Part shown: positions 6,850-59,109 of the stretch, in pieces
Layout of the letters: each line of letters begins with the position of its first letter
Position numbering within the stretch: position 1 is the stretch's first letter
Position numbers and translations under genes: made by a program
The notes under the pieces: model-generated
The model's database searches: none
What the model saw: only the letters and a program-made list of their open reading frames with translations
Told to the model about the DNA's origin: nothing
Assembly: GCF_037042905.1 (NCBI RefSeq)
Contig: NC_087251.1
Coordinates: 3,164,001-3,228,000, forward strand
Length of the DNA stretch: 64,000 nt
Source of the DNA: Lytechinus pictus
Taxonomy: Eukaryota
Direction: 5' to 3'

Positions 6850-8959
6850 TCAAGGTGCATTTCTAGTATATCTGGTTGCTGTGGGTGGCCTTGTTCTTTC
6901 TCGATGACCATCTCTAGGAGTATTCCGACCAACATCAGCAGTTCTTGAAGGCATTGGTGAATGCATGCTATCTTGACTTGCAGACGCTACAGCTGATGTC
7001 CCCGGTTCAATCTTCTTGCTGCGTCGAGTCAAATTCTGCGTAAAACGGCTGGTCGATTCGGTAGATCGGTCTTCACGTAGCGGTGGAGTTGACCTCGTAG
7101 TAGCATTGTTGTTACCGCTCACACGATTACTTTCTACCAGATTGCTGGTTGCAGGGGTTGGGGTAGGAGGATGTGCAGGTGGACTACGGCGGTTTGAAGA
7201 TGAGCGTGATGTAGTCGCAAAGTTTGGAGTTGTAACTGGCTTGAAGTTACATCCATCTTGCATCCATGGATGGTTAAGAATGTCATTCACTTTCAGTCTG
7301 CGTTTTTTATATACCAAAATGAAACCAAGCCAGAAGTAGCTGTTAGTAATGACTCTCACCACACCAATAGCACATAGTTATTTGTAATTTTATCAAAACA
7401 ATCACAGCAAATGCTGGTTTGTGTACTATTTCTGATGCAATGATTTGTAAAACTTTTGGGGAGATGGAGTCATTCTATTGTACTGAAAAGTTTAAAAGCA
7501 TTGTCATATTAGAACTTATAATCATTTCCAACTAAAAAAAACCGAAATTCCTACCAATACATTCATTGTTTTTATTATCTTGAATTTTATATCAATGAAT
7601 TATTTTATAATAAAAAGAATAGCAATTGTAATGGCTTCAGAAAATGATGAATGATAAGGAAATATTTCATTTAACAACGAATTTCTACCACTGCTCATTG
7701 CTCCCTCCTCCTGCTTTTCCTTTTAATTCTATGACATCATCACTTTATTCTCTGATATGATCATCTATTGCCTTGATATGATCATCTATATTGCCTAGAT
7801 ATGATAATCTGTATTGCCTTGATAATTATGATCATATATATTGCCTTGATATGATCATCTATATTGCCTTGACATATCAAACTTACCTCCTTTCTGCAGC
7901 AGGTTGGAGAACAGCCAGAATGATATCTTTAAAGAGTAAGGTAAGTTCTTTCTTTTTCGTGAAGCAGAGTCTCTGATCCATTTGGTCTTTAATCATCCGT
8001 TTGATATTAGAATCATCAAAAGGCATTGTCCCGCATACCATGATGTATAGAATAATCCCCAAACTCCATACATCGTATGCCTTACCTGAAATTACATAAG
8101 TTTGTGTGTATTTTAGTCCCATTTTGATAGGACTGAAATAATAATTAAGCTAAACAGGTGTTGATCAAAATATATAACAAATAGGCCTACAATTTAGAGT
8201 CGTATTCTTTTAATTTGTTATTTATTGTTTTACTTATTTATGTGGCTATTCATACTTTCAGGTGGCTGTTTGCTAATAAAATAATCATACTTCATGAAAC
8301 ATAATTTATATGAGACTGGAATTAGAGACATCTGACAATAAATAAATTCACATTTACACCGATGTATTGATGGAGGGGCATTAGGGGCAATAGACCCCAA
8401 AAGATATCGGACTAGGGCCTGTTACAACCGATAATGTCGCAGGGACGCATAATGTCGCAATTGCGACATTATGCGTTGACTGTGACATTATGCGTTGGAT
8501 GATTTTGGCATAATGTCACAGTCAACGCATAATGTCGTAGCTTAAATTACTAACGCATAACGTCGCAAGTCTTAACGCATAATGTCGCATCGGTATTTTA
8601 TTCAGGAATCGAGTTGCAGATAAGATATAAGATATGTTTTCACTCAGTAATTCATTCAAGCTCTGTCATCTGAACGTTTTTGAAATTGTGTTTGGTGGGA
8701 CAGGCGCGAATGCGGGGGGGGGGCAGTATTGAATTCATTATGATGAAGAATGGTCACTTTTTGAAAATTTGATATTTTATCGTTGTTCATATTTTAAGAA
8801 AGAAATCATATTTCGTATTATAACTCAGAATGTACCGTATGAACAGTAATTATAAAGCGATAGGTCCTATACAAATCTCCCGTGGGGGAGAGGGGATCAC
8901 GTGATAAAGTAATAACATGTTAGTATGTTGCGGGAGGGGGCAGAATTAATGCCCCCCCC

Positions 8960-11900: not shown

Positions 11901-12808
11901 TGACGACGAATGACGATAAAATTATTATCATAATATGATTGAAAATAATGATAATGCCATTAATAATGTTAATAACGATGATGATTCTAATGATGATATA
12001 GATTATGATGATACCCCCCCCCCCCCACATTATTTTATTGCAGTAATACATCGGAACGATGTGTCAAACAACTCTTAATTCAGTAGGCTCAAATTCTTTG
12101 ATCAATTTCAGTTTTATTTTGTTTTAAGAACTAACGTTGGGTGTCAAAAAATATGATTTTCATAAATTAATTCACTATAACCTTAACCTGTAGGATGGGG
12201 GGTGGGGTGTCCGGACACTTAATATTTTTGAAGCCTTCTTTTTTGTCTTTGGATTACACTAAAAATACGAATTCAATAGTTGTAATCATCTTCTGTTTTG
12301 TTCTCTATGATATTACCTAACATTTCGTACTAAATATTTTATGAAACTTTGCTTGTAAATTTTTCCAAATGACTTTATAAAACTGATCGTCCGGACACAC
12401 AACCTGTCCGGACACACAACAACTGGGTATATAGATATAGGCCTAAATATTGAGCAAATAGCTTACCTTATTTCCAGTATCAAATATTTCAAAACATTTG
12501 ACGATATTTCTGTGCTGTACTTTACTCAAAATTTTGATTTCTCGTGGAAGAAATTTTTCCAGAAAATCTTTTGGAGCCTTCTTTCTGTTGATAATTTTAA
12601 TGGCGCACTTTCCTCTGTTGTTGCTCAGTTGGCATGAGTAGACGGCAGCATATGACCCCTCTCCTAACATTAATCCAAGAGTATACCCTTTTTTGTTTAA
12701 CATGACTTCTTCATTTATAACTCTCCGAACCGATGTTGTTCCAGCCATGAATTTGGCACTATCCGTCGCCGGAGGCTTTGTTTCCATCTTAGTTTCTGGT
12801 GATAACAT
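6850..12808 (-). CDS. TSSK: Testis-specific serine/threonine kinase-like, 5 coding exons, ~432 aa
   Basis: Exons 12808-12467, 11694-11546, 11048-10888, 8085-7887, 7297-6850; all GT/AG and in phase, 1299 nt in total. Motifs [64 protein letters not shown] are characteristic of the TSSK family. Confidence 0.93.
7753..7872. repeat. Minisatellite, ~22-27 bp unit (tgatatgatcatctatattgcct)
   Basis: About 5 imperfect tandem copies in TSSK intron 4. Confidence 0.8.
8420..10254. mobile_element. Non-autonomous TIR element with TGT...ACA ends and 5 bp TSD (Ginger-like)
   Basis: TIR tgttacaaccgataat / attatcggttgtaaca; TSD gggcc at 8415-8419 and 10255-10259; subterminal aacgcataatgtcgca repeats; long imperfect inverted arms. 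Confidence 0.8.
10255..10411. mobile_element. Short MITE whose left TIR was the target of the Ginger-like element
   Basis: TIR gggccccgttgcataaaa / ttttatgcaacggggccc. Confidence 0.65.
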
Positions 12809-13041
12809 TTTTTTTGGGGTATTTTGCTTGTTTTGACTTGAGCTCTATGTTTTTTTATTTTAAGTTTTCTTTTGTGTTTTATTAACACAAGTTATTCAAT
12901 ACTGAACTTTTATCGTTGTGTTTTCCTGGCACCTCTAAATTGAAATTGGATTGTGATTAATAAAGTTTCTTTTGCATAGCGCATGGGGCAACGCGCACGC
13001 GCCTTGTGCATGCAAACGTAAACCACTTGTCGATTGATGAA

Positions 13042-13656: not shown

Positions 13657-13820
13657 GTAGACCTTAATTGGTAACATAAAATATATTTCATATTTCAATG
13701 TTGGTAACCAATCAAACATTAATGTTCTAACGATCATCAGTTCTAACAAGCATTAAATTTGTAGGAATTCATCATATATTATTTTTTGTAAAAAAGCGGC
13801 GTAAAAAGGTGACGAAAATC

Positions 13821-14765
13821 ATGCAGAGTTCAGTAAAAGCCATCGGTTTAAAAATCCGAACGATGGGTAAAAATCAAACATCCCAATCGGCAAGAATCAG
13901 AACACCAGAGCAAGCCCATTTGAATAATGCTGTTAACGATGGAACAGTGATGCTAAGTCATGGATACTGTTTGGCACACAAACTCGGTTCTGGTAGTTAT
14001 TCCAAAGTACGGATGGCCGTGCACAAGACGACCCGAAAACGTGTTGCTGTCAAGATCATTGATAGAAGACGAGCACCTAGAGATTACCAGGATCACTTTC
14101 TTCCAAGAGAATTGGCCGTCATTCGTCAGCTTCAGCATCCAAATGTTCTGCGTACATATGAGTGGTTTGAACAGAATCAAAAGGTCTACATGGTTTTAGA
14201 ATTAGCAGAATCTGGTGATGTATTGGAGTATATACGTACTGTTACCAAGGGTTCCGTCCCAGAGGTGCTTGCAAGAAAGTGGTCCCTCCAAACTGGACGA
14301 GCTCTTCTTTACATGCATGAGATGGATGTGGCACACCGCGATGTAAAGTGTGAAAACCTGTTACTCGATCGCTGTAACAACATCAAACTAACTGACTTTG
14401 GCTTCGTAAGATCAGTCGGGAAGGGTAGTCTCAGTAAGACCTACTGTGGATCTGCTGCATATGCTGCTCCAGAGATCATCCGTTCTGTGCCTTACTGTCC
14501 TTTCAAGAGTGACGTGTGGGCTTTTGGAGTGGTCATCTACATCCTGGTTGTTGGCTGTATGCCGTTTGGTGATGACGTCAAGAACATAAAGAAGATCCTT
14601 CATCAGCAATATTCAGGTGCTCATTTCAACGCCAGTAATAGCACTAATGTCAGAGACGAATGTCGGGACCTGATTAGAAGCATGTTGACCATATCTACTA
14701 AGACTAGGTTGGCACTAGGAGAGGTGATGGAGAGCGAGTGGCTCAATCAAGTTCAGATTTCTTAA
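13821..14765 (+). CDS. TSSK: Intronless testis-specific serine/threonine kinase-like (start at ATG 13821 or 13863)
   Basis: Single ORF with a complete kinase domain: [59 protein letters not shown]. Confidence 0.93.
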   Translation: MQSSVKAIGLKIRTMGKNQTSQSARIRTPEQAHLNNAVNDGTVMLSHGYCLAHKLGSGSYSKVRMAVHKTTRKRVAVKIIDRRRAPRDYQDHFLPRELAVIRQLQHPNVLRTYEWFEQNQKVYMVLELAESGDVLEYIRTVTKGSVPEVLARKWSLQTGRALLYMHEMDVAHRDVKCENLLLDRCNNIKLTDFGFVRSVGKGSLSKTYCGSAAYAAPEIIRSVPYCPFKSDVWAFGVVIYILVVGCMPFGDDVKNIKKILHQQYSGAHFNASNSTNVRDECRDLIRSMLTISTKTRLALGEVMESEWLNQVQIS

Positions 14766-15729: not shown

Positions 15730-17737
15730 TAGGGGCGTAGCTACGGGGGGGGGGGGTCTGGGAGGCACGTGCCCTCAGAGATTTGGTGTGCCCCCAGATG
15801 CCCCCCCCCTGAGAAAAAAATTGGCGGAGCAAAAGAAAAAAAGAAGTTGAAAGATAGAAGAAAAAAAAGAAGAGGAAAATTAGAGAAGGGAGACAAATGA
15901 ATAAAATAAAGTAAGGGGAAAACTTGCAAAAAGATAACAACTTTCATGTCACTACGTAAAATTTTCGCTCGCGCTGCGCGCTCGCAGTGCCTGTTCGATG
16001 AGATTCAAATATTGCTCAATTATAGGCTGATATAGAGCTTAAAATATCAAGTTTTGAAATCAATATACAAAACATATTTCAGCTCGGACATCGAGCTTTC
16101 ATATTTTTTTTATTTACAAATTGAGTTTTTATGTGCTCTGTAAAATGTCCGTTTGATGGTCAAAATATCCACATTTTCAGCTTACGCAGCACGGTCGCAT
16201 TATTTTATTTTCCAAGCTCCTATTGTCTTTGTGTATTCCATAAAGTTATCAAAATATCCCTTTTCAGATGTGATTGTCAAAACATAGGCCTCTAAGCTAG
16301 CTCTGCGCGCTCGTATTTTGATTGGTATGTATACCTCTATAATAATTTTATACCCAGCTACTTAAAGTCCCCTTTTCATTACAGTTTATTAAAAAAAAAT
16401 CAGCTCGCGATTTAAGCTCGCATTAATTGTTGAAAATGTATTAACCCATGCGTCCTATTCATAATTATAAAATGCTTTTCAGGCTTTAGTATCAACAAAT
16501 TCCACGCTCTCATTAAGGATATTTGATTAATGAATAAGAAAATAAAATTTTCATAAAATCCTATTAACTAAATTGGCCCTTTTTTAGAATGGAATATCGA
16601 CAAGTTTCATCTCACGCTTAGGAATAATAGGAAGATAAGGAAGAAGTCATCATTTTTATTTGATGACATAATGTCCTTAGAATGTCCCTGTCCTATGTCA
16701 AAATAATGATATAAAATGTCAGTTCGCGCTTCGCGCTCGCATCATTTATTAAGTGTGATCCACATCCACTTCGAAATTTTCCTACACAGTGCTTGAAATA
16801 ATGCCTAAATTGACTCTTTTTCAGATCGGAATATCGAATGTTTTCAGCTCGCGCTTCGAGCTCGCATTATTGATCTTTATAATTAAAAAAAAAGTATTCA
16901 GAATGCCCAGATTCTAGGTCTAAATCTAAAACACGCGCACGCAAGTTTGAGATAGGCAGCTTGTTCTTTATTTAAAACGTGCTTAAAGTATCCAGTTTCA
17001 GATCAGAATGTACATAATTTTCTGCTCGCGCTTCACGCTCGCATTATCAGGAAGATACCCAATTACCCATCCGATTCATGATTTACAAATCGTTTTAGGT
17101 CTAAAATCTGAATTTTCTTCCGCTCACGCTTCGCGCTCGCATCACTTGTTTAGTTACATCCCTTTCATGATTACAAAAAGTGCTTAGAATGAACAATTTG
17201 TTGTGTAAAATATGAAAAACAAATTTCAGCTCGCGCTTTGCGCTCACATTATTTAGTGTTGAAATTTTTTGTCTTCATAGGTAACTGCAAACAGTTCTTA
17301 TCAGGACAGAACGTTTATTAAAATTTCCCGCTCGCGCTTGTCGTTCGCAGTAATTATCTAGTTACATCGCATTTTGTTCAGGATGTTAAATTTTCAGGAA
17401 AAAATGCATGAAAGTTTTTTAAAAACAAAAAATAGAAAATTTAGCTCGCACTTTTTATATAGGTCTTTTGAGATTATTTTATAATTATGTTGTTATATAA
17501 GAATAAAGCTAAGAAGTGACTGTGAGGACTACCCCTTCAAACAAACAAAAATCAACTTTGAGCGGCCGATCGGGGAAAATATGGGTGAAAAATATTGGTG
17601 CCCACCCCCTATTGGCGGAAGCTGGATCGCTCCTGTGACACATACACACACAGAAAAAATTGTTGTCCCCCCATTAAAAAGCAAGGACACCCAGTGCCCC
17701 CCCCCCCCCCGAGAAAAAAATCCTAGCTACGCCACTG
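15730..17737. mobile_element. hAT-like non-autonomous element (gctcgcgcttcgcgctcgc repeat family)
   Basis: Ends taggggcgtagcta / tagctacgccactg; 8 bp TSD gtcatcac at 15722-15729 and 17738-17745; periodic internal gcgcttcgcgctcgc motifs. Sits inside an older inverted repeat (arms ~15570-15640 and ~17778-17847). Confidence 0.8.
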
Positions 17738-20023: not shown

Positions 20024-21628
20024 GCAAAGAGATTTGTAGTTCTGAACAGTTCTGAACAGAGTTGCAGAAAGGACTTATAACAATATCTTCACTATGCAAC
20101 ATCTCAGAGAACTTGCCCAGGTACAATATTTCTAATCAGTAAAAAAGTATCATCTGGTAATCAATTCTATTGTTCCCTATATCAGTTGTTTAATTTGTTT
20201 ATGTTTAAGAATTTTGGTTATAGATATCATTCATGGTTTATAGTTTTGAAAGGATATTGTTCAGTTATGTCATGAAGGAAAAATGAGGCTAGTTTGGAGT
20301 AATGTGCAGTATGATGTTAAACATATGGCTTTTTCTCCAGGAAATGAGAACACACCAAGAATACAAACATGGTTGACCATTATCTTATCAGAGAAGCCTA
20401 TATACATATTGAATGTTAAATGCGTATGTACAGTGCGTATCAAAAAAAGTTTACACTTTGAAAAAAAACCTGGGAATTAAAAAAATATACAACATGTGGG
20501 TAATTTTTTAACATATAATCTTGGGTTTGGGTCTCATCTATCCAATGAAAGTAAAAGTTTTGACAGAATGTTACACTTGAGTGAGCACTGTCCATTTTTG
20601 TAAAGCTCGCAGAAATCTGTTTGCGCAGAAATGCTCGTTTCACGCTGTGTCAAAGGGAAAGGGCGAAATCAAACTTACCCTGCGGAACATTTCTCATACA
20701 TTTCCCTTGTACTTATAGTCAATTGAAATAAAACGGATACATTCAAGAATTTTGTAACAATTTTTCCACCCAAATTGGCATTTCAACACTTAGTAAGCAC
20801 AACCTTTACCCTTATTGTGCTAGCTGGATCTGAGGACATAACTGAATTTGAACAAAAGTTTATATCAGACATCTCCAGCATTTTTTCACCAAGTTTTTAT
20901 CATTTAAAGTGGAAGTACATTTCATTTTTCATTAATACTTGTTTCTCCACACTTTTCCCAAGCTTGACAATGATTAACAAAATGAAAGTCAAGCCTAAGT
21001 TATTTCATGTAATTCACAGCTCAGTGTAAAGCAAATATCGTCACGATGGCCTTGGTGTGTGGGAATGTGGGGTGGGGCGCAATGCACTCTTCGAAGTGTT
21101 TTGGGCAAGGAAACAATTCAAAATGAAAAAAAATATCTTCAAATCAATTTTTTATGAGCTAAATTCAACGTGTTGTTCATGATAAAGGTCTACTTTTATT
21201 CGCATAACTATTTCAAAGTTCTGCGCAAATCATTTTTCACTAGCTTTTCAAAAGTAAGTGGTGCTCACTCAAGCGAAAATATTTTTCGACAGTCATATCG
21301 TCGTTTGCTTAAATGGATCTGTACCCATGTTAAAATGTGGAAATATGTTCAGGATATTACAAAAGTATGATTTTACAGGATTATTTCTAAGTGTAAACTT
21401 TTTTGTATACGCACTGCATTGTTTCATACAAATGTTGTGGTTGGTTATCATTGTAGGCAGCATCATCATTTTCGACCATCTCTCATAGTCAAGACTTCTA
21501 TATTTTCATCACAGGAAGCCAGCATCCAAGTTGCTGACTTTGATGGTTTCATAGCATCCCTCAACAATCAGATATATCTTCTCAAGAAAGGACCAAGAGT
21601 CTTCCAACTCCAAACAGCCTCTTTCTGA
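20024..21628 (+). pseudogene. MCM8: Orphan last two exons of an MCM8-like helicase (winged-helix C-terminus), frameshifted
   Basis: Exon 20024-20120 (AG/GT, 97 nt) reads AKRFV...VLNRVAERTYNNIFTMQHLRELAQ across a frameshift; exon 21515-21628 reads EASIQVADFDGFIASLNNQIYLLKKGPRVFQLQTASF*, matching the MCM8 C-terminus as I recall it (..AERTYNNIF..IQVADFENFIGSLNDQGYLLKKGPKVYQLQT). No upstream MCM8 exons were found. Confidence 0.82.
20431..21416. mobile_element. Tc1/mariner-like MITE, copy 1
   Basis: TIR cagtgcgtatcaaaaaaagtttacact / agtgtaaacttttttgtatacgcactg, TA on the left flank; homologous over its length to 36281-37531. Confidence 0.8.
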
Positions 21629-29900: not shown

Positions 29901-32900
29901 AATGAAATAATGAAATGTGGCAATAATATTATGAGTGTGTGTGGGTTTTTTTTCAAACCAGAAATCTGCCTTAAGCAATCCATGTATTTTCATAGTCCAT
30001 TTTTTATGTCCACTTTCTCGATTTTTAAGTTACTTTTTATAAGATTTTTACTAATATCCTACAGAAGTCTTGTTTTCTCTTTGGCCATCATTTCACTTTT
30101 TGCCTTTTGCTGTGACTTCATGCAAAGGGATCCATTCACACTCTATATAGCTTCTTAAAAACTTGTATTTATATGGATTGAATGTAATATACTTACACTG
30201 GGAACGTACACATCCTCGTACTTTGAGGCTACAAACAGACATGTGATTCCTACGAGCTGAAGCGAATGTACAGAGATAATCCGCTCCATTGCGTATGCAT
30301 CTATCAAGGCAATTGCCAAGTGTAATGTTGCATTCTCAAGTTCAAGATGAGCCTGAAATGAATGAATGAAAATACAGTCAAACCTGTTTTAATGACCACC
30401 TGTATGAAAGGAGCATCCGTGGATAAAGCCCACCAGTTTGTTTTCCCTTTGGAATCTGTATTACTGGAAGCTGATTATGAACCCCTTGGATGGAGGAGGG
30501 CCGCACAAAATGATTTCTAGGACAACTCCCCTTGCAAACAACTGGAGAGTTGTCTCCTTTGTATGAGATGTTCTTTGAGGCATTCATCTCCTCTTATTTT
30601 CTCCCCCCTCATTTTTTCAAAAAAATATGTAGCAGGTCGCCCACCGCCCACTGTGGCACAGAGCAAAAGCTATTTACACTGACAAAATAAATGAACATTG
30701 TTTTGTTATACTTATCTTAAAGTCAGTGCAATGTGAAAAACCGTTTGATTACTTTGGGGGGCATTTTTGTAAATTCTGTTGCATAGTATATACCTTTGAT
30801 AGTTTGACAGTTTTTGAGATTTATTGCGATTCAATAAATCAAAAACAAAATAAGTATGCCTTCAACTTGATTGAATCAACATCGTGCAAAGAAATGAAAA
30901 GTAACTGGTAAACTATCACTGAATTTACTATGGAAGCTTAAAAGTGCCACTCAGATGTTCAGATAATAATCTTGTTATGTCTACATCCCTTAGAATAAAT
31001 GGCCAGATCTCGTCATGTCTGCATCCCGTGGGAGAGATTATCAGATGGCAAGATCTTGGATCTCGTCATGTCTACATCTTGTGGGAGAGATGATGAGATG
31101 ACAAGATCTTGGATCTCATCATGTCTACATCCTGTGGAGGAGATGATCAGATGACAAAATCTTGGATTTCGTCATGTCTACATCCCATGGGAGAGATGAT
31201 GAGATGACAAGATCTTGGATCTCGTCATGTCTACATCCTGTGGAGGAGATGATCAGATGACAAAATCTTGGATTTCGTCATGTCTACATCCCATGGGAGA
31301 GATGATGAGATGACAAGATCTTGGATCTCGTCATGTCTACATCTTGTGGGAGAGATGATGAGATGACAAGATCTTGGATCTCATCATGGGATGTAGACAT
31401 GACGAGATCCAAGATCTTGTCATCTCGTCATATTTTTCAAGGATTGTAGACATGACGAGATGATTATCTGAACATCTGGGTGGCACTGTTAAGCTTCCAT
31501 AATTAACTACCCGTTTTCCCCCAATATAGGGAGTCTATACTAACTTGTACATCTGTAAGCCAATCTATTAATACTTCACGATGTAACGGCTGTACGGAAG
31601 ATCGACTCGCTTCTCTGCTCATATCAAGCAATGTTTCTCTCTCCTGAATTCAGATGAAAATGATGGACATAAACATTATATGTACATATTTCGTCACCAA
31701 TTAATTTGTCATTTTGTGGAACAAAATGGTAATTGTATTAGGACCATGAAAGCAAGACGGATCAATAGCGCTATTTTATACATTCATTAGGTCTCGGGGG
31801 GGGGGGGGCGGGCTGCCCCCCCCTGGCAAAAGAGCTGGATTCGCCCTTGTTTATAGTTCATAATTATTCTCTTAAAACGATAAAAATGAGCTGTCGGCAG
31901 TCGCTTTCTTTCTTTCAAGTGGAAGGATTACTGCTAGAATTTACCAGAATTTTACAACTTCGAATTTCAATTTTCAAACCTCTCGCTGGCTACGTTCACT
32001 TGCAGAGTAATTAAAACTATATTCTATCATTAATAAATCCCTCAAACGGTTTTTTCAGTATGATTATTAAGAAACACACAGCTATTTCAGGCAAAAAGTA
32101 TAATCTGATGAGATTACGTTTGCACCCAATTGCCTAATTTTAAAATATAAGTTCCCTTTTTACTCCCCCTAAACAAAAGGTCTTTTGTTTAACGTAGGCA
32201 TACAGCGTAAAAAATGTTACAGTCACCTTTTTCTTGCATCATTTATTAACTGGGTGTGCCATAAATCACATTGCCGCCCTTGATAAAACCAAATAACTTT
32301 GAACACCTCTACTACGATCTATTTGACTTTTCTTTAAATATTTAATCTTAAATTTCAAGTTTGAGTTGACAGGTATTTTATGAAGATTCTAAAGAGACCT
32401 ACGTTATAGCCCGAATCAGGTAATTCTTTCGAATTTAGATAAGAGAGAGTATATACTTTATACATTTATTGATTCAACAATCATCTTTGATTTTTTTTTA
32501 GATTTAAAAATCAATGTACATATGCCTAATAAGACTGTTGGTGGGTAGCAAACTCCAATCCACAATTATATTATTAATTACATGTATATAAAGATCGACT
32601 TCTACATCTATCAGATCTAAACTAGTAAACTGACACGTTCCCCAAAATTAATTTTGCTCTTACAAAAATGTTTACCCACCGGTTTATTTCGCCAGTTGTC
32701 AAGTTTGCTTCCACCTGCTAACAGCCAATGACAAAAACGTCGGGAGAAAAAATATGACCGCCCGTCCATTATTCTTACCTTTAGATATGCAACAATATCC
32801 TCATGGTAGTCGTAATCTTGCACAGACGGGTCAAAGAACTTGTCGACATTTTTCTGTCGCATCAGGAAGGCCATATCATCATCGCTGATTTGCACTTAAA

Positions 32901-34477: not shown

Positions 34478-34621
34478 CAAACCTCTTCCTTGATATCTTT
34501 AGGAGATTGGCGGTTAACTGTGGTATATAGGAAATTAAACAAAATCAGAGCATATCATTATTTATATTTGTTACACAATTATGTTTTCTAAAAAATCACA
34601 TCCTCACTGACAAATGAAGAG

Positions 34622-34770
34622 CGCCAATATCACCCGATCTGTATGAAACGATCACAGACACAATGAAGTTCTAATGCGATGAAATGTTTTCCGCACGCGG
34701 CGTGCCGTGTCGTCAGCCGCATGTTAAATAACGCACTGTGATTGGCTGGCGAGATGGGACCACGTGATAT
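34622..34770 (-). promoter_or_regulatory. Probable cyclin promoter / TSS region
   Basis: CpG-richer patch with CCAAT box (gattggc 34740-34746) and E-box cacgtg near 34761, just upstream of a candidate 5' UTR exon donor. Confidence 0.4.
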
Positions 34771-35688
34771 ACAACAAAGAGCGCCGTTTTAATCTCAATA
34801 GAAAAATTGCGAAGTACTCGATGTTCATTTGACCGAGACCGCCACAGTGGAGCGGTAATTTTTTTTAAGGACAATACACAAACTGCCGTACGGATGTAAG
34901 AATTGAATACGATAAAATCCCAAGGTAGATCACTATACTCACACAGTACAGAGTATAAAAGAAAAAAATCTTTGAAGCTAAATGCTTTTGCAACAACTGC
35001 ATAACAAGCAACGTACCCAGTTAGGATTACAAATCTCAGTTCACTAAACGAACAATGACATAGACCTATATCTCGTCGATGGCCCAGAGCAGGAATAAGA
35101 AGGAGCTAGCTGTAACGCATACGCATTATCATCGTGTTCTAAAGCGTAACAATGGGGAACAATGGGATTTTTAACATTCCTCTTGGATTGGTTGGTTGGA
35201 TTTAGAGATGATGGCGCTATATATTCTATCGATATGGATGATTTACCCCAGGCTATGCGAGAGGGGTTTTCTCCATCTCCATGTACAGTATCGTTGTCTT
35301 TTTGGACCTGCTATATACTTAGTTGCACTTTTTTTTTTTGGGGGGGGTCGTTATTATTTGGCAACCAGTCAATGTGAAAGTTTCGCCATTATAAATATTT
35401 TTCAAATTGCTATGTTATCTTGAAAAAATATATATCTTTTAATGAAATAATAAAATAGTTATTTCTTTTATTTTTACTTTCTCTTTTCTTCTCTTCATTT
35501 TTCTTCTTCTTTTTGAATACCGGTACTTGGATTTGAAGTCATGAAGGTGTGTCTCAATATAAAATCTAGGGCTTTTAATTAGTACGTAGACAGGCTAGAA
35601 AACTTAGGAGGGAGATGATAGAGAAAGGAAGAAGGAAATCGCAGCTCCAATCCTACGCCCTCATCGAAGTATGGGATACGTCTGTACA

Positions 35689-35887
35689 ACTGGGCGTTGT
35701 GGTGTGCGCCTGTAATCCAAGCTACGTGGGGAAGTTACAAATTGATGCAGAGGTTCGAGGTTCGAACCCTGGTCACGTCTATCGGATGGTGACGTTAAAG
35801 GTCGGTCCCAGACGTAAATAATCATATCTGATTGATACACGTCTGACAAAAACTCAAATACATAACACACACACCCACACACACACA
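35689..35887 (+). mobile_element. Candidate SINE with 7SL (Alu-domain) head, tRNA-type B box and (CA)n tail
   Basis: actgggcgttgtggtgtgcgcctgtaatccaagctac resembles the 5' end of metazoan 7SL RNA; ggttcgaaccc at 35759-35769; CA-rich tail ~35865-35887; no S-domain sequence follows. Confidence 0.6.
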
Positions 35888-36280
35888 CCCCGGTTGATGT
35901 GAATATCAACGTTGGTGAAGTCTCGATCTTTCCCGGAAACAAGACGCCTTTGAATATTTCCTACTTTTGGAGACAAGCCGTTGTAGGATGGAGTGTGAGT
36001 TTGGGAGAAAAAAAAGGATACATTCATCTATGCATGCATAATTATTTATACATATATACTTATATATTTCATCATAATTATATAATTTATTTTTAATCAA
36101 ATTTAAGGAACTATAAAGTAAGGCAAATTAATCCGAAGGTTATATTAGGAAAATTAGTTATGAATTATGGTGTTTTCTTGAGCCTCTTTCGGGTCTTGCT
36201 CAATACTTATTGACACTATAATATATATACATGGATATATTGTTCACAATTTTTTAAAACATAATATAATTTTGCTTATA

Positions 36281-37531
36281 CAGTGCGTATCAATAAAAAC
36301 TTTACACTTTGAAAAAGTCCTGGGATTGAAAATATATATAACATGGGGATTATTTTTTTTTCACATATATTCTTTGGTTTGAGTCTCATCTAACAAATGA
36401 AAGTGAACGTTTGACAGAATGTTACACTCAAGTGAGCACTGTCCATTTTTTTGTAAAGCTCGCAGAAATTAGTTTGCGCAGAAATGCTAATTTTCACGCT
36501 GTGACAAGTAAAGAGGGCGAAAACAAACTGACCGTACGGTACATTTCTTATACATTTCTTTTAGATGTTTAGCCTATTGAAACAAAAGATAACACATTTT
36601 AAGCATTCTGTAACAGCTTTGCCACCCAAATGAATATTCAACCCTATAGGTAAGCACAACTTGTACCTGTTTTTGTGCCATCTGGATCTGAGGACATAAC
36701 TGAATGTAAACAAAAGTTTATTTCAGACATCTCCAGCCTTTTTTCACTAAGTCAGGTTTTTTATCATTTAAAGTGGGTTTACATTTCATATTTCATTAAT
36801 ACTTGTTTCTATACGCACATTCTACGAAGCTTGACAATAATTTACAGAAGATAAAGCAAGCCTAAGCCATGTCATGTTAATCACAGCTCCGTGTAAAACA
36901 GTTATCATCACAATTACCTCGGTGTGTCGGAAAGGGGCGTGGTGCAATGGCCCTCCTTGAAGTATTCTGGGCAAGGACCCCGGGCAAGGACACAAGTTAA
37001 AAAAGGTAAAAGATATCTTCAAGTCAATCTTCCTAGCTAAAGTCCATGTGTTCTTTATGGTTACCATCCACTTTTAGGGGGTGTTGCAAGAAAATATTTG
37101 CAATCAATCGCAAATATTCTGTTGCAATTTTACAATTGATTGATCACTTTTACCTTTATCAAATCAGATATACACTCCTTGTTTCATGGAGCAGATTACC
37201 AATCAATCGCAAATTTGCAATTAATTGCACGGCATATGCTTGATTTCGGGAAGGAAAATAGACTTGCAATTGATCGCAAGTTTCTTGCAACGCCCCATTA
37301 GTCATACAACTATTTCAAATTCTGCGCAAATCATTTTTTTTTCACAAACTTTCCAAAAGTAAGTAGTGCTCGATCACTCAAGCGGAAAGATTTTTCGACA
37401 GTTATAATATCTTATCGTCATTTACCTAAAGAGATCTGCATCAATGTTTTAAGGTGGAAAAATTAGGGATACTACAAATATAATTTCACAAGGATTTTAT
37501 TTTTAGTGTAAACTATTTTTGACACGCACTG
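36281..37531. mobile_element. Tc1/mariner-like MITE, copy 2
   Basis: TA|cagtgcgtatcaa...ttgacacgcactg|TA; colinear with 20431-21416 apart from an insertion at 37077-37297. Confidence 0.8.
37077..37297. mobile_element. PIF/Harbinger-like MITE nested in the Tc1-like MITE
   Basis: TIR gggggtgttgcaagaaa / tttcttgcaacgcccca; 3 bp TSD tta at 37074-37076 and 37298-37300; absent from copy 1 of the host. Confidence 0.75.
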
Positions 37532-40335: not shown

Positions 40336-42483
40336 CAGGGGCGGATCCAGCTTTTGCCAATGGGGGGGGGGGCGAACAAATTTTAACCCATATTTTCCCC
40401 GATCAGCCACTGAAAGTTTATATTTGTTTGTTTCTTTGAAGGGGTAGTCCGAATAGTCACTTCCAAGCTTTATTCTTTTAAACCGGGCTTATAAATCAAC
40501 ATAAATATATGCTTATCTCATAAGCCTTATCTAAATAGTGCGAGTGCTAAGCGCGAGCTATTTTTTTTAATTTCATGTATTTTTTTCTTAAAATTTAAAC
40601 ATTCTGGGCAATGTTTGTGATCCTAAACGAGATGTGTATCGCAACTAAATAATTATTACTGCGAGCGCGAGCAGAAATTTCTAATATACGTTTTGATCTG
40701 ATAAAAGAAAGGATCTGTTAACGGCTGCTTGCATTTAGCCATGCCCATGAAGACGTTACATATTATTTTTAAACAATCAAATAATGCGAGCGCGAAGCGC
40801 GAGCTTAAAATTTTGACATTTTTACCTGAAGAATGAAAGTTCTAAGCACTTTTTGTAATCTTAAAAGGATAAAGTATATAACTAAACAATTGATGCAAAG
40901 CGCGGGCGGAAAAAAATATCAAGATTTACACCTAAAAATGGGACACTCTATTCATGTTTTGTAAATCATAAAAGGATGAGTAATCTTCCTACATTAATAA
41001 TGCGAGCGCAAAGTGCGAGCAGAAAATCTTTGATAATTACCGTGTTTACATTTAATCGGCTTTTGCATCGGCTTTTTCATAACGTGTAAACGCGATTAAC
41101 TTGCATCGGCTCGCGGTTCAGAACCGGCAATTTGCACCACCAAAGTAGTAGGTTCAGAACCGAGAGCCGATGCAGAGTCCGCTTTTTTACTACGTGTAAA
41201 CAGAAAGCCGATTCTGCATCGGCAATTGGTGTGCATTTCATTTACTTTTCCATTGTGACGCAATTGTAAGCGCACGGATCCAGCGTTGTCTTTATTATGA
41301 CGTATATTGTTGGTGTGCGTATCATTTTTGCTTCGGCTCGCGGTTCTGAACCAACCGCGAGCTGTAACAGCGTGTAAACGCAGTGCAAGATAAACCAAAA
41401 GCCGATTCTGCATCGGCTTTTGGTTCTGAACCAAAAGCTGATCAAGTGTAAACACGGTAATTGTGATCTGAAACTGGATAATGTTTTAAATAGAGAACAA
41501 GCCGCGTATTTGAATAAACATGCGCGCGTGTGTTTTGATTTTGTCCTAGAATCTGGGCATTCTAAATACCCTTTTCTATCATGAAAATCAATAAAGCGAG
41601 CGCGAAGCGCGATCTTATAACATTTGATATTCCGATTTGGAAAGGGTCAATTTAAGCTCCGTATTTCAAACGCTTTGTAGGAAAATTGTGAGGTGGATAT
41701 GGATCACATGCACATGCAGTTAAAACAGAGTTGATATGTTTCATTAATTGAGTTTTGACAGCGGACCGGGACATTCTATGAACCCTATGTCTTCATAATA
41801 AAGTCATCATATTAAAATGATAACTATCTTCCTATTTCTCTTCCTACGCGCGGGATGAAACTTGTCGATATTAGATTCTGAAAAAAAAGACAATTTAATT
41901 ATTAAATTAATGTCTTATTTATTACTCTAATAAGACTAATGAGGATGCGAAATTTGTTTTTATGGCCTGAAAACTGGACATTTAAAGCACTGAATAGGAT
42001 GCATGAGTTAATATATTTTCAACAATCAATGCGAGCGCAAATCAGTCGTGAGCCAACATTTTTGATAAACTGTCATGAAATGGGGATTTTAAGTAGTTTG
42101 TTATATATAGAATTAATATTATATACATCACCAATCAAACGCGAGGCGTGCAGCGCTAGCTCATAAGTTTTGACAATCTGACATAGATATTTTTAGAACT
42201 TTATGGAATAGGCCTACAGGAAAATAATATCTACCTGACAAATCAAATTTTGCGAGCGCGCAGCGAGCAGAAAATGTTCATATTTAGACCATAAAACAGA
42301 AAATTTTACAGAGCACTTTTTAAAAACCAATTTGTAAATCAAACAAAATAATGAAAGTTTGATTTCCGAGCTGAAATATATTTTTTGTATATTGAATTGA
42401 AAATTTGATTTTTATAAGCTTCATATATTGAGCAAGATATGTAAATCACCTAAAGGCGATTTATATAGTGACATGAAAGATTA
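40336..42483 (-). mobile_element. hAT-like element related to 15730-17737, in reverse orientation
   Basis: Starts caggggcggatccagc; reverse complement is colinear with ~15940-17630; periodic gcgagcgcgaagcgcgagc motifs. Confidence 0.75.
41039..41458. mobile_element. Palindromic MITE nested in the hAT-like element
   Basis: TIR accgtgtttaca / tgtaaacacggt flanked by aatt on both sides; internal ggttc(a/t)gaacc and gccgat..tgcatcggc palindromes. Confidence 0.7.
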
Positions 42484-42707: not shown

Positions 42708-45700
42708 AAAATAATAGTATTGAAGGTGTCACAGGAGATAATGAAATATGTGAACTATGGAGAAAGCACTATAAGGATCTGCTAAACTGTGTTAGAAGTG
42801 AAAAGTTTTTAGTTAACAATGTTTCTTTTCATGATGATATGATTGTTTCCCCGGAAGAAATTGTAAAAGCCATTACGAAGCTTGATGGCAATAAGTCATG
42901 CGGGTTAGACGGTATAACTGCAAAGCATTTAAAGTATGCTAACTCCAAATTAGGTCCTTTACTTGCTGTATTTTTTTTTTTTTTGAAACGTTTTTATTTA
43001 GTATAACCATCTCATACACATATTACAAAACGAGTTTAATAACCATATAAAATAACAATGTACAGTATGGATAGGTTACATTTTGATAAAAAAAATACAT
43101 ACAAAACAAAAACAACAAAGGGAAAAGAAAAGAAACATAGAGAAGCAATACAGGTCTGTTCGTCTACATTACCCAAAATCTAATAAACTCCATTTTTTTT
43201 TAAATCTATACATAGTAGAGTCCCTATAAGCAATACACTTTTCTGTTTGGTACACTTGTTTTAATTTACTGGTAAACAAGTCAAAACAAGGAAGGATATT
43301 AATATATCTACACAGATATAAAGTTTTCTTTGCTACAATAAGGCAATGATTCAATAACATATCTTGCTTGTTTTTAATTCCGAATAAAATCTCTTCATCC
43401 TTTACTTGGATAATTTGTTTTTTAAATTTAGTATGCCACCATCTTAGAAATTCATTCCAAAAATCTCGAGTATGCGAACATTCTACCAACAGGTGTTCAA
43501 TTGTTTCCTGTTCTTGTTTACAAAAAGAACACATCTCATTATCTACAACTTTCATTTTCTTTAACTTTGCATTTACTAGTAAGCATCTTGTATTTATTTT
43601 ATATTGAAATATTCTTGTTCTTGTATCTGGAATAACTTTAAAAGGCAACTCGTAAATAAAACTCATCTTCACTTATATCATACCTTGATCTCCAATATAT
43701 TTCAGAAGTAGGGGTTTGGTATTTATCTTCTTTTAATATCATATTTATGATCTTGGTTGACAATTTTGATATAAATATTTTTTTATTACCAAAAACTATA
43801 CAAATATCTAACTTTTTTAACAGATGTCGCCTCTCGAAACAACGAGCTTTAACTGTTTGTGGAATAGCAGAAACAATTGAACGCCAAAGAAGATAGTTTT
43901 TAAAGCCAATTTGTTGCCACTTTATAAAAGGGATTAATTGACCATTTTCATCAAATAAATCTTGTATAAACCAAACACCAATATTGAACAATTCCTTCAC
44001 AAAACAACTGACACCTGCTATTTTTATTTGTCTATTATTCCAAATAATACTTTCATGAGAAAATGCATCATGGTTACTCAGATCTCTTAACTCAAAATAG
44101 GCATATAAGACCTCTTTATAAAAAGAGGGTACAAATCTTAGTTTTAAACAATCTTTTTTATCAAAATTACAATAGAGTAAAAAGTGACCACCATATTTTC
44201 TTATAAAATGATTAAAATATATCTTCCATGAAGAAAGTCCTTCATCAAAAAATCTTACTATCCATTTTATTTTGAGTGCCTTAAACATTGAACGAATATC
44301 GATCATATTCAGTCCCCCTTTAGAATAAGGGGCAATCAGTGTTGACTTTTTTATATAGTTCTTTTTTCCATTCCATAAAAAGGCATGTATAATTTTCTCA
44401 AGTTCTTCCACCACATGTTCAGGGACAGACAAAACTGAGGCACAAAATATGAACTTTGACAATGCAAAAGTTTTTAAGATTTGTATCTTTCCTATCAGAG
44501 TAAGATTACGTTTTCGCCAAATATTTAGCAATACCTTTACATCCTTGATACATCTATCAAAATTAAGCTTTAAAGCTAAATCAGTATCATAAGAAAAAAA
44601 TATTCCAAGACCCTTAATTGGGTTTTCTGGCCACTCAATATCAAAATATTTATCTTGAGATTCTCTAAACGAGCCCAACCACATGGCTTTACACTTATCT
44701 CTGTTTGTTTTCAAACCAGAAAAAGAGGAAAATTTATCTATAACTGAAAAAGCTTTCTCTGCAGACTTTTTGTCCGCTAAAATCAATGTCGTGTCATCGG
44801 CATATTGGGCAAGTTTAATCATATTTTCATTTATAAGAATACCTTTAATATCATCCCTTTGCCTTATCTCACATGCGAAAGATTCAATACAAAGTATGAA
44901 CAAATACGGGGACAAGGGGTCTCCCTGTCTAACCCCTCTATTTAAATCAAAATATCCTGATGAATGTCCATTACTACATATGCAGCTACTGATATTTGTA
45001 TAAAAGGACTGAATGTACTTTATAAATTTCTGACTAAATCCAAATTTGCCAAGGGTAGAGAAAATAAAATTCCATTCTAAAGAGTCAAAGGCTTTTTGAT
45101 AATCTAAAAATAAAAGCAAACCTGGGATATCATTTTCTTTTGTGTAGAACATAGTATCTATGATAGTTCGAATCGATTCACCTATGTATCGATCTTTCAT
45201 AAAACCTGTCTGGCATGGATGTATCAATCTAGGTAAAACTTTGCATAGTCTATTAGCAAAGACTTTGGATAAAATTTTAATATCTGCATTAAGTAGTGAG
45301 ATCGGTCTCCATTTACTTGCATTTACTTGCTGTATGCTTTTCTGGTTTTTTAATTCATGGAATACTACCCGATAGTATGCTATCTGTTATTTTGGTCCCT
45401 GTGTTGAAGGACAAAGCGGGCCGAATTGCTAGCAAAGATAACTATAATTGCGTTAGCGAGTGTAATTTCTAAAGTCTTGGAGAAGATAATTCTGTTTAGG
45501 TTAGAAAAATATATTTCAATATGTGATAATCAATTTGGCTTTAGAGCAAAACATGGAACTGATATGTGTATTTTTGTTCTAAAAGAGATCATTGCGAGCT
45601 ATCAAAAGAGAAATTCCTCAGTGTTTTTATGTTTTCTTGATGCCTCCAAAGCATTTGATAGAGTCAATCATGAAAAACTCTTCCAAAAAATGTATGATAG

Positions 45701-46770
45701 GGGTGATACCAAGTTATTTGATCAGGATATTAAAAAATATATTGGTATGGTAACCAAACTATGATGATTAGATGGGGTAGCTGCCTATCCGACTCGTTTA
45801 CTCCCGCCCTGTTAATGGTGTTCGACAAGGAGGTATATTGTCTCCATACCTTTTTAACTTGTACATGGATGACTTATCTGTGAAATTGAATGATTGTAGT
45901 ACTGGCTGTTTAGTTGGCTGTACCAAGATTAATCACTTGATGTATGCTGACGATCTTGTAATTTTTAGTCCGTCAACTGCCGGGCTGCAGAGTTTGTTAA
46001 ATGTTTGCACTCAGTTTGGTATGGAAAATGATGTCAAATTTAATGCGAAAAAAAAGTCATGCTATGTTTGTTACTTGTAAAGATCATAATAGATTAGTGT
46101 TTCCAGATTTCTATCTGTGTGGCACCAAACTTGAAGTTTGTAAGGAGACCCGATATCTTGGTCATTTTTTCACAGAGGACCTATGTGATGATAGAGATAT
46201 TTATAGACAGTGTCGCAAACTTTATGCACAAGGAAACACACTTGTGCAGGAAGTTCCATGTGCTCCCATGGAGTAAAGATTGCATTATTTCGAGCATATT
46301 GTACACCGTTGTATACTGCACATTTATGGTGCAGATATAAAAAGAGCAGTTTAAGGAAAGTTATGGTAGCCTATAACGATGCTATGAGAATGCTTCTTCA
46401 GTACAGTAGGCACTCTAGTGCTAGTAGAATGTTCGCTGACGCTCATGTACCTTCATGTCAACTAATATTAGTCTGTATCTTTGTCTTTTTCGAGACAAGT
46501 TACTCATTTTGCCATATGTAAATATTTCCATTGTACTATTCACTTACTGCTTAACCACTTGTTTTAGGTATTCATTAATCTAGTTATTTATAGTGTGATT
46601 TGTTTTTCTCCTTTTTGACTGTTTATACTTTAATTATTTGTTCTTTGTTTATTCCAGTATTATCTTTGTATGTTTGTCTTGATGTATATTACATGTATGT
46701 TATTTGTTGATATGGACCTCTGCATATGCAGCTGTGACTGGATTAAAGCCTTGAATTGAATTGAATTGAA
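42708..46770 (+). mobile_element. Degenerate 5'-truncated non-LTR retrotransposon (RTE-X-like), split by an L1/Tx1 insertion
   Basis: Pieces ~42708-42970 and 45322-46770 read through as KSCGLDGITAKHLKYANSKLGPLLAV|CFSGFLIHG...QFGFRAKHGT...CFLDASKAFDRVNH...GVRQGGILSPYLFNLYMDDL...HLMYADD; several frameshifts; (TTGAA)4 tail at 46751-46770. Clade assignment is tentative. Confidence 0.85.
42971..45321 (-). mobile_element. 5'-truncated L1/Tx1-clade LINE (RT domain plus C-terminal CCHC), nearly intact reading frame
   Basis: WRPISLLN, QTGF, LDYQKAFDS, GVRQGDPLSPYLF, QYADD, and C-terminal CSFC...ETIEHLLVEC; one frameshift near 43660; AATAAA plus poly(A) (poly-T at 42971-42984 on +); TSD tttacttgctgta at 42958-42970 and 45322-45334. 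Confidence 0.92.
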
Positions 46771-51470: not shown

Positions 51471-52600
51471 TGTAACAACCAATAATGTCGCAGATTGCGA
51501 CATGCCCAAGAGCGTCCGACGCATAATGTCGTAATTTTTCTAACGCATAACGCAGAGATGCCAACCGTTACGGATTCGCCGTATTTGTTCCGATTTTATT
51601 CCTCCAATTACGGTGTTACGGCAACAATAAAAAGGTTACGGAAAAAACAACTACAATACATGTGTATTGTGTATTGTGTATTGCTTTGCTGTGTATGTGT
51701 ATATATGCGTGTATTGTGTATTGTGCATGTATATGCGTGTATTGTGTATACATGTATCGTGCATGCAGCGTGTGTGTGGCCAACGGTAAACCAACGGGAG
51801 TTTCTCTACTATAATTTATAAACGCGCGCACTGCCTACTACGTTCATTGAGTTATGCTTTTATCAAGGCTTTCTGATTAGAATTATCGATATCCTGGCCA
51901 ATCAATGCGAGCGACAAGTTCCGAACGCACGCACATAGACAAGCACAAATCAGCGGCACGAATTGCGGTATAATAGCGACTGGTAAATACGACTGTAAAG
52001 ATGATGACGTCATCCAAGATGGCAACTTACGATGACCAACGAAGGAATCGAGGATGACTAAGTTTTTATCATCATTTGAAAGGAATTAGCGGTAACTGCG
52101 GTCTAAGGTACGATGTTTCTTAATTTTATATATTTTCTCGTAAGTTTGGATGTAATTATTTTTTCATAATGTGACATTTGATGTACCAAAAACGATCCGA
52201 AAATCGGGTTTCCGCCGAATGTTAGATCTAACGTTACTGCTGCATGCTGATACGGAACTCGGGGAGCTCCGGCCCGAAAAGCGGGCCGGAGCTCCTTGGG
52301 TTACGTACGTATCAGCTAGCCCAGATCTCCCTGGGTTAGCTGATACGTTGTCTTAATGTACGGGCCAACAACTCTTCAGTCTATGTATTGGTGAGTGGAG
52401 CCAACGCGGTTCAGCTGAACAACCAAAATACAGAGACTGAAGCTTTTGGTCTAGCGTTCTATGAGAAACACACAACTAACAGTTTTTCAAACCTAAGTCC
52501 TAATTGACTTCAAAGTCATCAATCACAACAAGGTAAGAAGCCACTTGGTCCTCCCCCCCCCCCTCCCCTAAATTTGAGGTGGGGGCAGACCCCCCCTCCT

Positions 52601-52637
<37 letters not shown>

Positions 52638-53436
52638 TGTCCAATTTTTTACCTGTGACATGTGTCCATCCCAAAATTAAAGGTGGACCCCCCTAAATTT
52701 TTTTTTCTTGGACACTGTCCCGGCCCGCGATGAGTTTCAGTATTTTTGGAGGACACCTAGTGGCATCCCTGTATAAACGATGCTACTTCGCGGGATGTTC
52801 CTGAGAGACTCCCATTTGTTCCTGACAAATATGGTAAATGTTCCTGACAACCATCCCTTTAGGTTGGCATCTCTGATAACGTCACATGTCGAAACGCATA
52901 ATGTCCCAGCAAATTTCTAACTTATAACGTCACATGTCGCAACGCATAATGTCGCAGCGGTATTTTCTTCAGGACCCGAGCTACAGATAAGATATAAAAT
53001 ACGCTTTCACTAAGTATTTTGAGACACGAGAAAGAGAATTAAGTGATTTGGAAATCAGGATTACTCTTTGTATGGATATTTATCGGTTTATTGCCATTTC
53101 GTCTACTGTCTTTTTCCCCCACTATCGCATGGTCTGATATCATTTCGTCTACCATAATTAGTTAGTCAACTATCAACATAGTCCAATAACCATTTCGTCT
53201 AATTACCATCTCGTCTAATAGCCAGTAGGTCTAATAGCCGTTTTGTTTATTATCATTTAGTCTAATTGTATTTTTTTCAATTGGTCCAATATCCACTTTG
53301 TCCAATATCACTACGTCTATTACCTTTTGGTCTAATAGCCAATTTGTCTAATAACCACTTGGTCTACTCTCATTTTGTCCATGTTCTATTTGGTCTGACT
53401 TCATTATGCGTTGGTGCGACATTATCGGTTGTAACA
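51471..53436. mobile_element. Ginger-like non-autonomous element, copy 2, with nested insertions
   Basis: Ends tgtaacaaccaataatgtcgca / tgcgacattatcggttgtaaca; 5 bp TSD tcgcg at 51466-51470 and 53437-53441; shares subterminal sequence with 8420-10254. Confidence 0.8.
51553..52875. mobile_element. hAT-like element with 6 bp TSD, chimeric
   Basis: TIR cagagatgccaacc / ggttggcatctctg; TSD ataacg on both sides; ~51810-52771 is homologous to ~57895-58848 and includes that family's right end. Confidence 0.75.
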
Positions 53437-57703: not shown

Positions 57704-58848
57704 CAGGGATGCCACTTTTCCGTCTTTATACGGAATTCCGTCTTTTTCCCTGCTATCTGTCTTATTTCCGTCTTTTCCTATTTTCTGTGTATTAAAAAAA
57801 TCGAAAAGTCCTCCTTTTTTCCCCCCTCTCTCTCTCGATTGCGATGCATGCAGTGAGAGATATTTCCCCAAGATATTTGCTATTATACAGTACATAATTT
57901 ATAAACGTGCGCACTACCCACTACGTTCATAGAGTTATGCTTTTATCAAGGATTTCCAATTAGAATTCTCGATATCCTAGCCAATCAATGCGAGCGACAA
58001 GTTCCGAACGCACGCACATAGACAAGCGCAAAGCAGCGGCACGAATCGCGATATAATAGCGACTGGTACATATATCTGTAAGGATGATGATGTCATCCAA
58101 GATGGCAACGTACGATGACTAACGAAAGGGTCGAGGATGACTATGTTTTGATCATCATTTGAAAGGAATTAGCGGTAACTGCGGTCTAAGGTACGATGTT
58201 TCTGTATTTTATATATTTTCTTGTAAATTCGGATGTAATTATTTTTTTATAATGTGACATTTTATGTACAAAAAACGATCCGAAAATCGGGTTTCCGACG
58301 AATGTTACTGCTGCCTTCCGATACGTAACCAAGGGAGCTCCGGCCCGCAAAGCAAGCCGCAGCTCCCTTGGGTTACGTATCGGCTAACTCAGGGAGCTCT
58401 GGCCCGCTTTGGGGGCTGGAGCTCCCTGGTTTAGCTGATACAGTCTATGTATTGGTGAGTGGAGCCAACGCGGTTTAGCGGAACAACCAAAATGAAGACT
58501 GAAGCTTTTGGTCTAGCGTTCTAGGAGCAAGAACTAACTACCGTCAGTTTTTCAAACCTTGACTTCAAAGTCATCGATCACAACAAGATAGGAAGCTACT
58601 TGGTCCTTCCCCCCCTAAATTTGAGGTTGGGCAATGGACCACCCCCCCCCCCCCTAAAATTTATGTTAACTTTTTTTTTTTTTTTGCTGGCTTGTCCAAT
58701 TTTTTACCTGTGTCCATCCCAAAATTTAAACTGGACCCCCCTAATTTTTTTTGCTTCTGCCCCCAATGCCCCAATTTACTGTTCTTGGACACTGTCCCTG
58801 CCCCTGATAAGTTTCAGTATTTTTGGAGGACACCTAGTGGCATACCTG
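57704..58848. mobile_element. hAT-like element with 6 bp TSD
   Basis: TIR cagggatgccac / gtggcatacctg; TSD aatttg at 57698-57703 and 58849-58854. Confidence 0.8.
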
Positions 58849-59109
58849 AATTTGCCGTGAATGAAAATAAATGTTTTTCATGGAGGGGTATGCGGCAAGT
58901 GTGCAAAGAAATGGTTGGTCAATATAAAATAATTTTGTCATATTCATAATTTTCATAATATTTGGAATAGCAAGTGCAAATTTTTCTTGATTGTATTTCC
59001 TCTAGTTGTCATTTTTAAAGCACTGAAATAAAGGTGTCCGGCAATAGGATACACTGCCATATCTGAGGATGGGAGAAGCCTGCCTATGGCTATGGGGGGG
59101 GGGGTATAT

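Follow-up and report, generated by a model that had tools for sequence, protein, structure and literature searches.

Positions 35689-35888 of the forward strand of a stretch of Lytechinus pictus DNA (hereafter the window, meaning the whole 64,000 nucleotides that were analysed) hold a 200-nt SINE copy, which is very probably one member of a 7SL-headed SINE family of Lytechinus-type sea urchins. It is apparently a SINE1-type element and the first from an invertebrate. Its parts follow each other in the order 7SL head, tRNA-type T-arm with B box, Deu/Nin-like core, hairpin and (CA)n. The original prediction of an invertebrate SINE with a 7SL head, a tRNA B box and a CA tail is borne out, as the Rfam match of the head, the multi-copy body, the common junction and the Deu/Nin-like core agree. 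The full chain proposed below, which joins the 7SL-headed family and a head swap to Pol III, SRP9/14 and a hairpin-reading LINE, seems reasonably probable. The features are as follows:

35689..35735 (+): 5' Alu domain of 7SL (SRP RNA), 47 nt (Rfam, pairing test, hagfish comparison)
inside 35689..35735 (+): helices 2, 3 and 4, G4-U23 wobble and UGU loop (Rfam pairing)
35693..35702 (+): putative Pol III A box, at the place of the 7SL A box in a passage of PMC7245038
35711..35713 (+): UGU motif, flanked by helix 3 and helix 4 (sequence)
35736..35755 (+): linker, identical at 6-8 of 20 positions to three marine-metagenome relatives (L001-L003)
35756..35780 (+): tRNA-type 3' half, made up of a T-arm (35756-35772) that contains the B box (35759-35769) and of an acceptor-like strand
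35772..35808 (+): 5' portion of a central domain of the Deu/Nin (Inv/alpha) type (by-eye alignment)
35809..35845 (+): 3' hairpin with a 7-bp outer and a 6-bp inner stem, candidate LINE-recognition element (folding)
35846..35888 (+): A-rich stretch and (CA)n tail (35865-35888), at which the family ends on its 3' side (sequence, loose ends of contigs)
35965..35968 (+): first T4 run met downstream of the start; it lies in the flank and may serve as a Pol III stop (sequence)

The Rfam model Metazoa_SRP matched 35689-35735 on its own at 30.1 bits (E 6.6e-7, model positions 1-44) and was found again at E 1.3e-5 in a scan of the 2.5 kb at 34500-37000; both scores lie under the gathering score of 70, which is no surprise when only 47 nt are compared with a model of 299 nt, and at gathering score Rfam gave no match across the 64-kb window. 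The 2.5-kb scan also returned mir-1268 (E 4.8e-4), a family that matches the head too and which we take to be Alu-derived, and three further matches elsewhere (E 4-6.7). The likeness to 7SL that had been claimed for the 5' end is therefore real, but by Rfam its extent is nt 47 and not nt 37. Rfam found neither SRP nor tRNA in 35736-35900 at E<=10, and since no SRP match follows, the 7SL part consists of 47 nt, the 5' Alu domain alone. In a by-eye comparison with the excerpted 5' end of the hagfish SINE1-1_EBu, 27 of the first 30 bases were equal, beginning with an identical first base, and in the A-box region (35693-35702) 9 of 10 bases equalled the hagfish SINE1 equivalent. Judged from these alignments, the 7SL likeness of the head is greater than chance.

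The head is compatible with all 17 pairs chosen for a pairing test (three in helix 2, six in helix 3, three in helix 4 and five between the loops), a score reached by none of 200,000 shuffles and by one of the 127,906 47-nt segments on both strands of the 64-kb window, which is the head itself; the pair set was selected post hoc with the alignment already known, the loop-loop register was our own choice and two non-canonical helix-3 pairs (10-17 and 11-16) were excluded from the 17. The TGG/CCA loop pairing of the original prediction would need two bases that Rfam assigns to helix 4. A complementary loop-loop register was found between nt 11-15 and nt 33-37, and its five pairs are an upper bound, since human SRP has three loop-loop pairs in the passages of PMC4238359 and PMC4231752. 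The UGU motif is retained in the head as predicted; the UGU loop is the central SRP9/14 contact site of human SRP (passage of PMC4231752), and the G4-U23 wobble is conserved among Alu RNAs (passage of PMC4238359). In the ViennaRNA fold nt 24-27, which form the UGU loop, are paired with nt 47-50 (probability 0.79-0.93) and the junction-closing helix 2 has a probability of 0.0; the junction is unclosed for the head alone too. The energy is -14.6 kcal/mol versus -12.8 for the head alone, a small gain. Because ViennaRNA lacks the loop-loop tertiary contact and protein terms, we read this competing fold as a caution and not as a refutation. The fold of the whole element is unremarkable (z -1.35, 17 of 200 shuffles). 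The 3' strand of helix 5, which SRP9 contacts as well (passage of PMC4238359), is absent, with no SRP match in 35736-35900 at E<=10.

Behind the linker, the B box at 35759-35769 lies where it had been placed, as does the (CA)n tail. The tRNA origin of this half is argued from the motif and the shape of the arm, as there is no Rfam tRNA match at E<=10; the source may have been tRNA-His. A 7-nt unit is doubled before the B box (35750-35756 and 35757-35763) and single in a shorter variant that is present in all four sequencing runs compared below, so that the A and B boxes are 56 nt apart here and 49 nt apart in the short variant. The segment 35750-35780 was also considered as a fused 3' part of 7SL of the FLAM/B1 kind and was rejected, since most of it recurs in relatives that lack a 7SL head and it has no SRP match. 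The start of the core agrees by eye with the Deu domain of AmnSINE1_HS, as excerpted, at 22 of 28 columns, over a stretch of about 28-37 nt with the later Deu domain missing, which speaks for the Deu/Nin likeness of 35772-35808 that had been suggested. A similar core stretch, again by eye, occurs in the excerpted BivaMD-SINE1.

A 21-nt pattern from the core was found at three loci (L001, L002 and L003) in marine-metagenome contigs, and nowhere in the genome contig set or the viral contig set. When aligned with the window, these loci are identical at 17-19 of 25 positions of the T-arm and acceptor-like strand, at 29-34 of 35 positions of the hairpin and at 29 of 30 positions of the core, the last value being partly built in by the pattern search. 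Over the head they reach 9-19 of 47, and Rfam detected no SRP in them. Their own heads carry A- and B-box-like motifs that are tRNA-type by eye only; ARAGORN found no tRNA there down to -ps80 and gave noise at -ps70. Since the three relatives have the body and tail in common with the window copy and lack the 7SL head, it is likely that a 7SL piece replaced the front half of the head on an older Deu-type tRNA-SINE.

The acgtct/agacgt stem of the original prediction is present in the tail, but 35810-35815 pairs best with 35839-35845, which closes the 3' hairpin. The hairpin is kept in L002 and L003 and is weaker in L001; among the four sequences it shows no compensatory change or covariation. 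A 9-nt insertion (duplication) in L003 sits in the hairpin loop. The terminal repeats that accompany this one hairpin differ among the relatives, being of CCAA type in L003 (about 300-375) and of another kind at the end of L001. In L002 the A-box region is interrupted at ~172-535 by a ~360-bp element with terminal inverted repeats and flanks of 3-base T/A repeats, which we take to be a PIF/Harbinger-like MITE. The copy at 35689-35888 has no target-site duplication (the best candidate is a 7-mer with a mismatch) and none was found at L002 or L003; three copies are too few to judge a family by. The nine bases directly before the head (35678-35686) are the same as those that end the tail hairpin of the family in L002 (position 652), and this string is present once in the window. 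They may be a relic of the 3' end of an earlier copy, the mark of an insertion into the element's own tail, or chance.

The proposed mechanism begins with a head swap, which would have come about by template switch or recombination, as in the model for the hagfish SINE1, where a head was swapped onto a tRNA SINE (passage of PMC7245038). The result would be a hybrid internal promoter with an A box from 7SL and a B box from the tRNA half. Pol III is predicted to transcribe the element up to the first T4 in the flank, here at 35965, and there is no T4 run within 35689-35888. The head is predicted to fold as a three-way junction, bind SRP9/14 and park the RNA on ribosomes that are making LINE reverse transcriptase. 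By analogy, such SRP9/14-mediated ribosome docking appears fairly likely, and it gains support from the extent of the head, which coincides with the 46-nt functional Alu domain: according to a passage of PMC11760393, this 46-nt 5' domain binds SRP9/14 and, in HeLa-HA cells, allows retrotransposition at ~86% of the level of full Alu. Copying would then proceed by target-primed reverse transcription with a hairpin-reading LINE instead of L1. The chances that this partner belongs to the I/Nimb clade seem about even. In some bivalve SINEs a hairpin is combined with an A-rich end and with CA/CAAA repeats, and one of them, BivaV-SINE1_MiYe, is paired with a Nimb LINE; the likeness of these tails to the urchin tail is one of build, without a scored match. 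The window contains no partner LINE, and its own reverse transcriptase element ends in poly(A), with no tail in common.

The main rival to SRP9/14 docking is a promoter swap only, in which the SINE family and the 7SL origin of its head are real but the head serves as start site and A box, SRP9/14 binding has been lost or plays no part, and the LINE would recognise the RNA through the 3' hairpin alone; we consider this rather unlikely. It would fit the predicted pairing that masks the UGU loop in ViennaRNA and the absence of helix 5 from the element. It would also fit the tRNA-type relatives, which spread with an identical tail type and without an Alu domain, and the promoter role that a 5S rRNA piece assumed in other Deu-SINEs (passage of PMC4758252). 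Against it, the 7SL match ends exactly at the closing helix of the 5' domain, well past the A box (nt 5-14), with G4-U23, UGU and the loop complementarity all retained. Moreover, the head equals the unit that was functional alone in the passage of PMC11760393.

For the question of a family, public sequencing runs were compared. A 1.4-kb stretch has 5-10% of its words in every one of the 24 runs listed and half of them in no run, as a short repeat common to them would give. Contigs from four runs of four studies, X1 from organism A and X8, X5 and X16 from organism B, were then compared with 35740-35864; contig records may be filtered out silently in this comparison. The body was found on 2,545 contigs in X1, 3,154 in X8, 2,150 in X5 and 102 in X16. 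The RNA nature of X16 is guessed and the run is uninformative for expression; the contigs show neither start, end nor strand. The 2,150-3,154 contigs in each of the other three runs show that the body is multi-copy in these organisms, in line with the family of the original prediction. Summed depth divided by median contig depth would give 25,000-32,000 copies, a figure rejected as a copy number because overlapping short contigs inflate it; it is safe to say that the copy number is far above 100 in the organisms of the runs. On the 3' side, all 16 loose-end groups shown pass through the A-rich end into CA repeats, beyond which they no longer agree; this holds in all four runs. On the 5' side, six of the eight groups shown (106 of 109 contigs) bear the 3' end of the head, and three of these 5' groups extend back to about nt 23-25 of the head, with an agreement of 0.53-0.56. 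Agreement of the loose-end consensus is 0.53-0.66 and 451 further loose ends fall outside the groups shown; the contig groups document the junction and the head's 3' half, and include neither nt 1-22 nor the upstream boundary. The T at 35781 is missing in ~82% of the X1 depth, as in the window, and is present in 99.7-100% of the depth of X8, X5 and X16 and at all three metagenome loci. This distribution points to a subfamily that would have amplified after the lineages of organisms A and B split, and hence to a recent, lineage-specific spread.

These contigs speak against a one-off chimera, in which a 7SL 5' fragment would be joined or adjacent to an ordinary tRNA-SINE without forming a family. 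It is true that BLASTN and nhmmer found no second copy within the 64-kb window, that the copy here has no target-site duplication and that no other copy showed the head's 5' half. Still, in four runs under two organism labels an identical head-to-body junction is present in 106 of the 109 contigs that make up the 5' groups shown, which makes such a chimera very unlikely. It is more improbable again that the element is an ordinary tRNA-derived SINE whose decayed head resembles 7SL by chance. ARAGORN at a relaxed threshold does fold 35692-35781 as a tRNA-Pro-like cloverleaf, but that threshold yields 26 calls in the window and the default settings none across its 64 kb, and against a chance resemblance stand the Rfam SRP match at E 6.6e-7, with no tRNA at E<=10, and the 27 of 30 bases shared with the excerpted hagfish SINE1 start. 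Finally, primate Alu or 7SL DNA mis-assembled into an urchin contig, for which the mir-1268 match of the head might speak, can be practically dismissed, since contigs of four runs from four studies connect the head with the invertebrate-type body and neither the 3' Alu part nor poly(A) follows the head.

Among known systems, the hagfish SINE1-1_EBu (Ebu1-1) resembles the urchin element in having a 7SL head from the first base on an older tRNA-SINE body, a simple-repeat tail and a non-L1 partner, which for the urchin is presumed (passages of PMC7245038). It differs in its 96 nt of 5' and ~44 nt of 3' 7SL, in the 7SL origin of both promoter boxes and in a bipartite RTE tail, where the urchin element has 47 nt of 7SL, a tRNA-type B box, a Deu-like core, and a hairpin with (CA)n. 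Alu, B1, Tu and Urop share with it the 5' Alu domain, including UGU and helices 2-4, and some left units of Tu derive from both 7SL and tRNA; these families, however, lost a central part of 7SL but not the 3' strand of helix 5, carry poly(A) and use L1 (passages of PMC13023118). The urchin element falls outside this Alu type, as it has no 3' 7SL part (35736-35900, E<=10), ends in a hairpin and (CA)n instead of poly(A) and presumably does not use L1. In extent its head equals the engineered minimal Alu domain SA46/AY46, which comprises the first 46-47 nt without the 3' domain (Moldovan et al., PMC11760393, in part). SA46/AY46 is a laboratory construct with a CMV promoter, poly(A) and human L1 ORF2p, whereas the urchin element is natural, has predicted internal Pol III boxes and lacks poly(A).

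In the DeuSINE/Nin-DC/Inv-alpha group (AmnSINE1, EbuSINE1, BivaMD-SINE1 and SINE2-3_SP), as in the urchin element, the Deu start follows directly after the tRNA half (passages of PMC4824008, PMC4758252 and PMC7245038). The central domain of the named members measures 70-330 nt in these excerpts, and the urchin element has only the first part of it, by the by-eye alignment. Replacement of the head is known in the Deu superfamily with 5S rRNA (passage of PMC4758252), where the urchin element has a 7SL head instead; the passages of PMC4824008, PMC4758252 and PMC7245038 name no DeuSINE that has a 7SL head. The urchin body itself may be that of a catalogued S. purpuratus SINE2.

SINEBase defines SINEs as interspersed elements of <1 kb with at least 100 copies (passage of PMC3531059). 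The urchin element, with 200 nt and 2,150-3,154 contigs in each of three runs from related organisms, agrees with this size and number. The same passage asks for a minimum of 60% identity to tRNA, 5S or 7SL across 60 nt or more, with exceptions on proof of Pol III transcription; here the 7SL match (47 nt) and the tRNA-type part (~25 nt) both stay short of that overlap. The element has internal A and B boxes, as motifs only, without a T4 inside. Its 5' end is homologous to 7SL (Rfam, hagfish comparison), as in SINE1, and CA repeats, a simple-repeat tail, mark the family end in all four runs. In the passages of PMC7245038, PMC10886601 and PMC13023118, 7SL-derived SINEs are limited to Euarchontoglires, hagfish and shrew moles, with a central deletion and the 3' strand kept. 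The original prediction, which had placed them mainly in Euarchontoglires and hagfish, missed Urop of shrew moles (PMC13023118, in part). The literature found reports vertebrates only and no 7SL SINE from an invertebrate, as far as its accessible parts go; Repbase, Dfam, a SINEBase supplement or subscription journals may contain one.

The flanks of the SINE contain no useful reading frame. Three pairs of interspersed repeats of 0.8-1.0 kb with 72-80% identity, one pair inverted, lie at 51811-52774 and 57894-58851, at 20429-21198 and 36279-37076, and at 16030-17009 and 41460-42426; one of these repeats begins ~390 bases downstream of the SINE. A tandem array with a period of ~53 bases occupies 31006-31431. 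The reverse transcriptase element at 43100-45386 (-) is a 5'-truncated non-LTR retrotransposon, presumably L1/Tx1-like, with RVT_1 and zf-RVT in two frames (43169-45386) and a poly(A) end, and a second fragment of reverse transcriptase on the opposite strand (45408-45764, +) abuts it. A single long ORF at 13731-14765 (+) encodes a kinase that matches TSSK proteins, the best match being from S. purpuratus at 92%; among the members of its cluster, the L. pictus protein is 99.4% and the L. variegatus protein 99.0% identical to it, which places the host in Lytechinus or very near that genus. A second TSSK-like gene lies in divergent orientation, with the start of its kinase domain at 12443-12844 (-), and its last exon may be 6850-7377 (-).

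Reviews up to 2026 treat 7SL-derived SINEs as exceptional (passage of PMC13023118), and a sea-urchin family with only the 5' domain and a tRNA B box would be an exception to the taxonomic as well as the structural rule for them. Its head parallels the 46-nt minimal unit that was defined by deletion in human cells (passage of PMC11760393). As a whole, we tentatively read the element, with slightly less than even confidence, as an independent origin of 7SL SINEs, which would be the fourth and the first in an invertebrate, combining a minimal 46-47-nt domain for SRP9/14 docking with a non-L1, hairpin-reading LINE. The relatives with the same type of body and tail but no Alu domain form a natural experiment, in which the gain from SRP9/14 would be measurable. 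Lytechinus is a genus used for embryo injection. If the reading is true, ribosome hitch-hiking would be a portable module that extends beyond L1 and poly(A).
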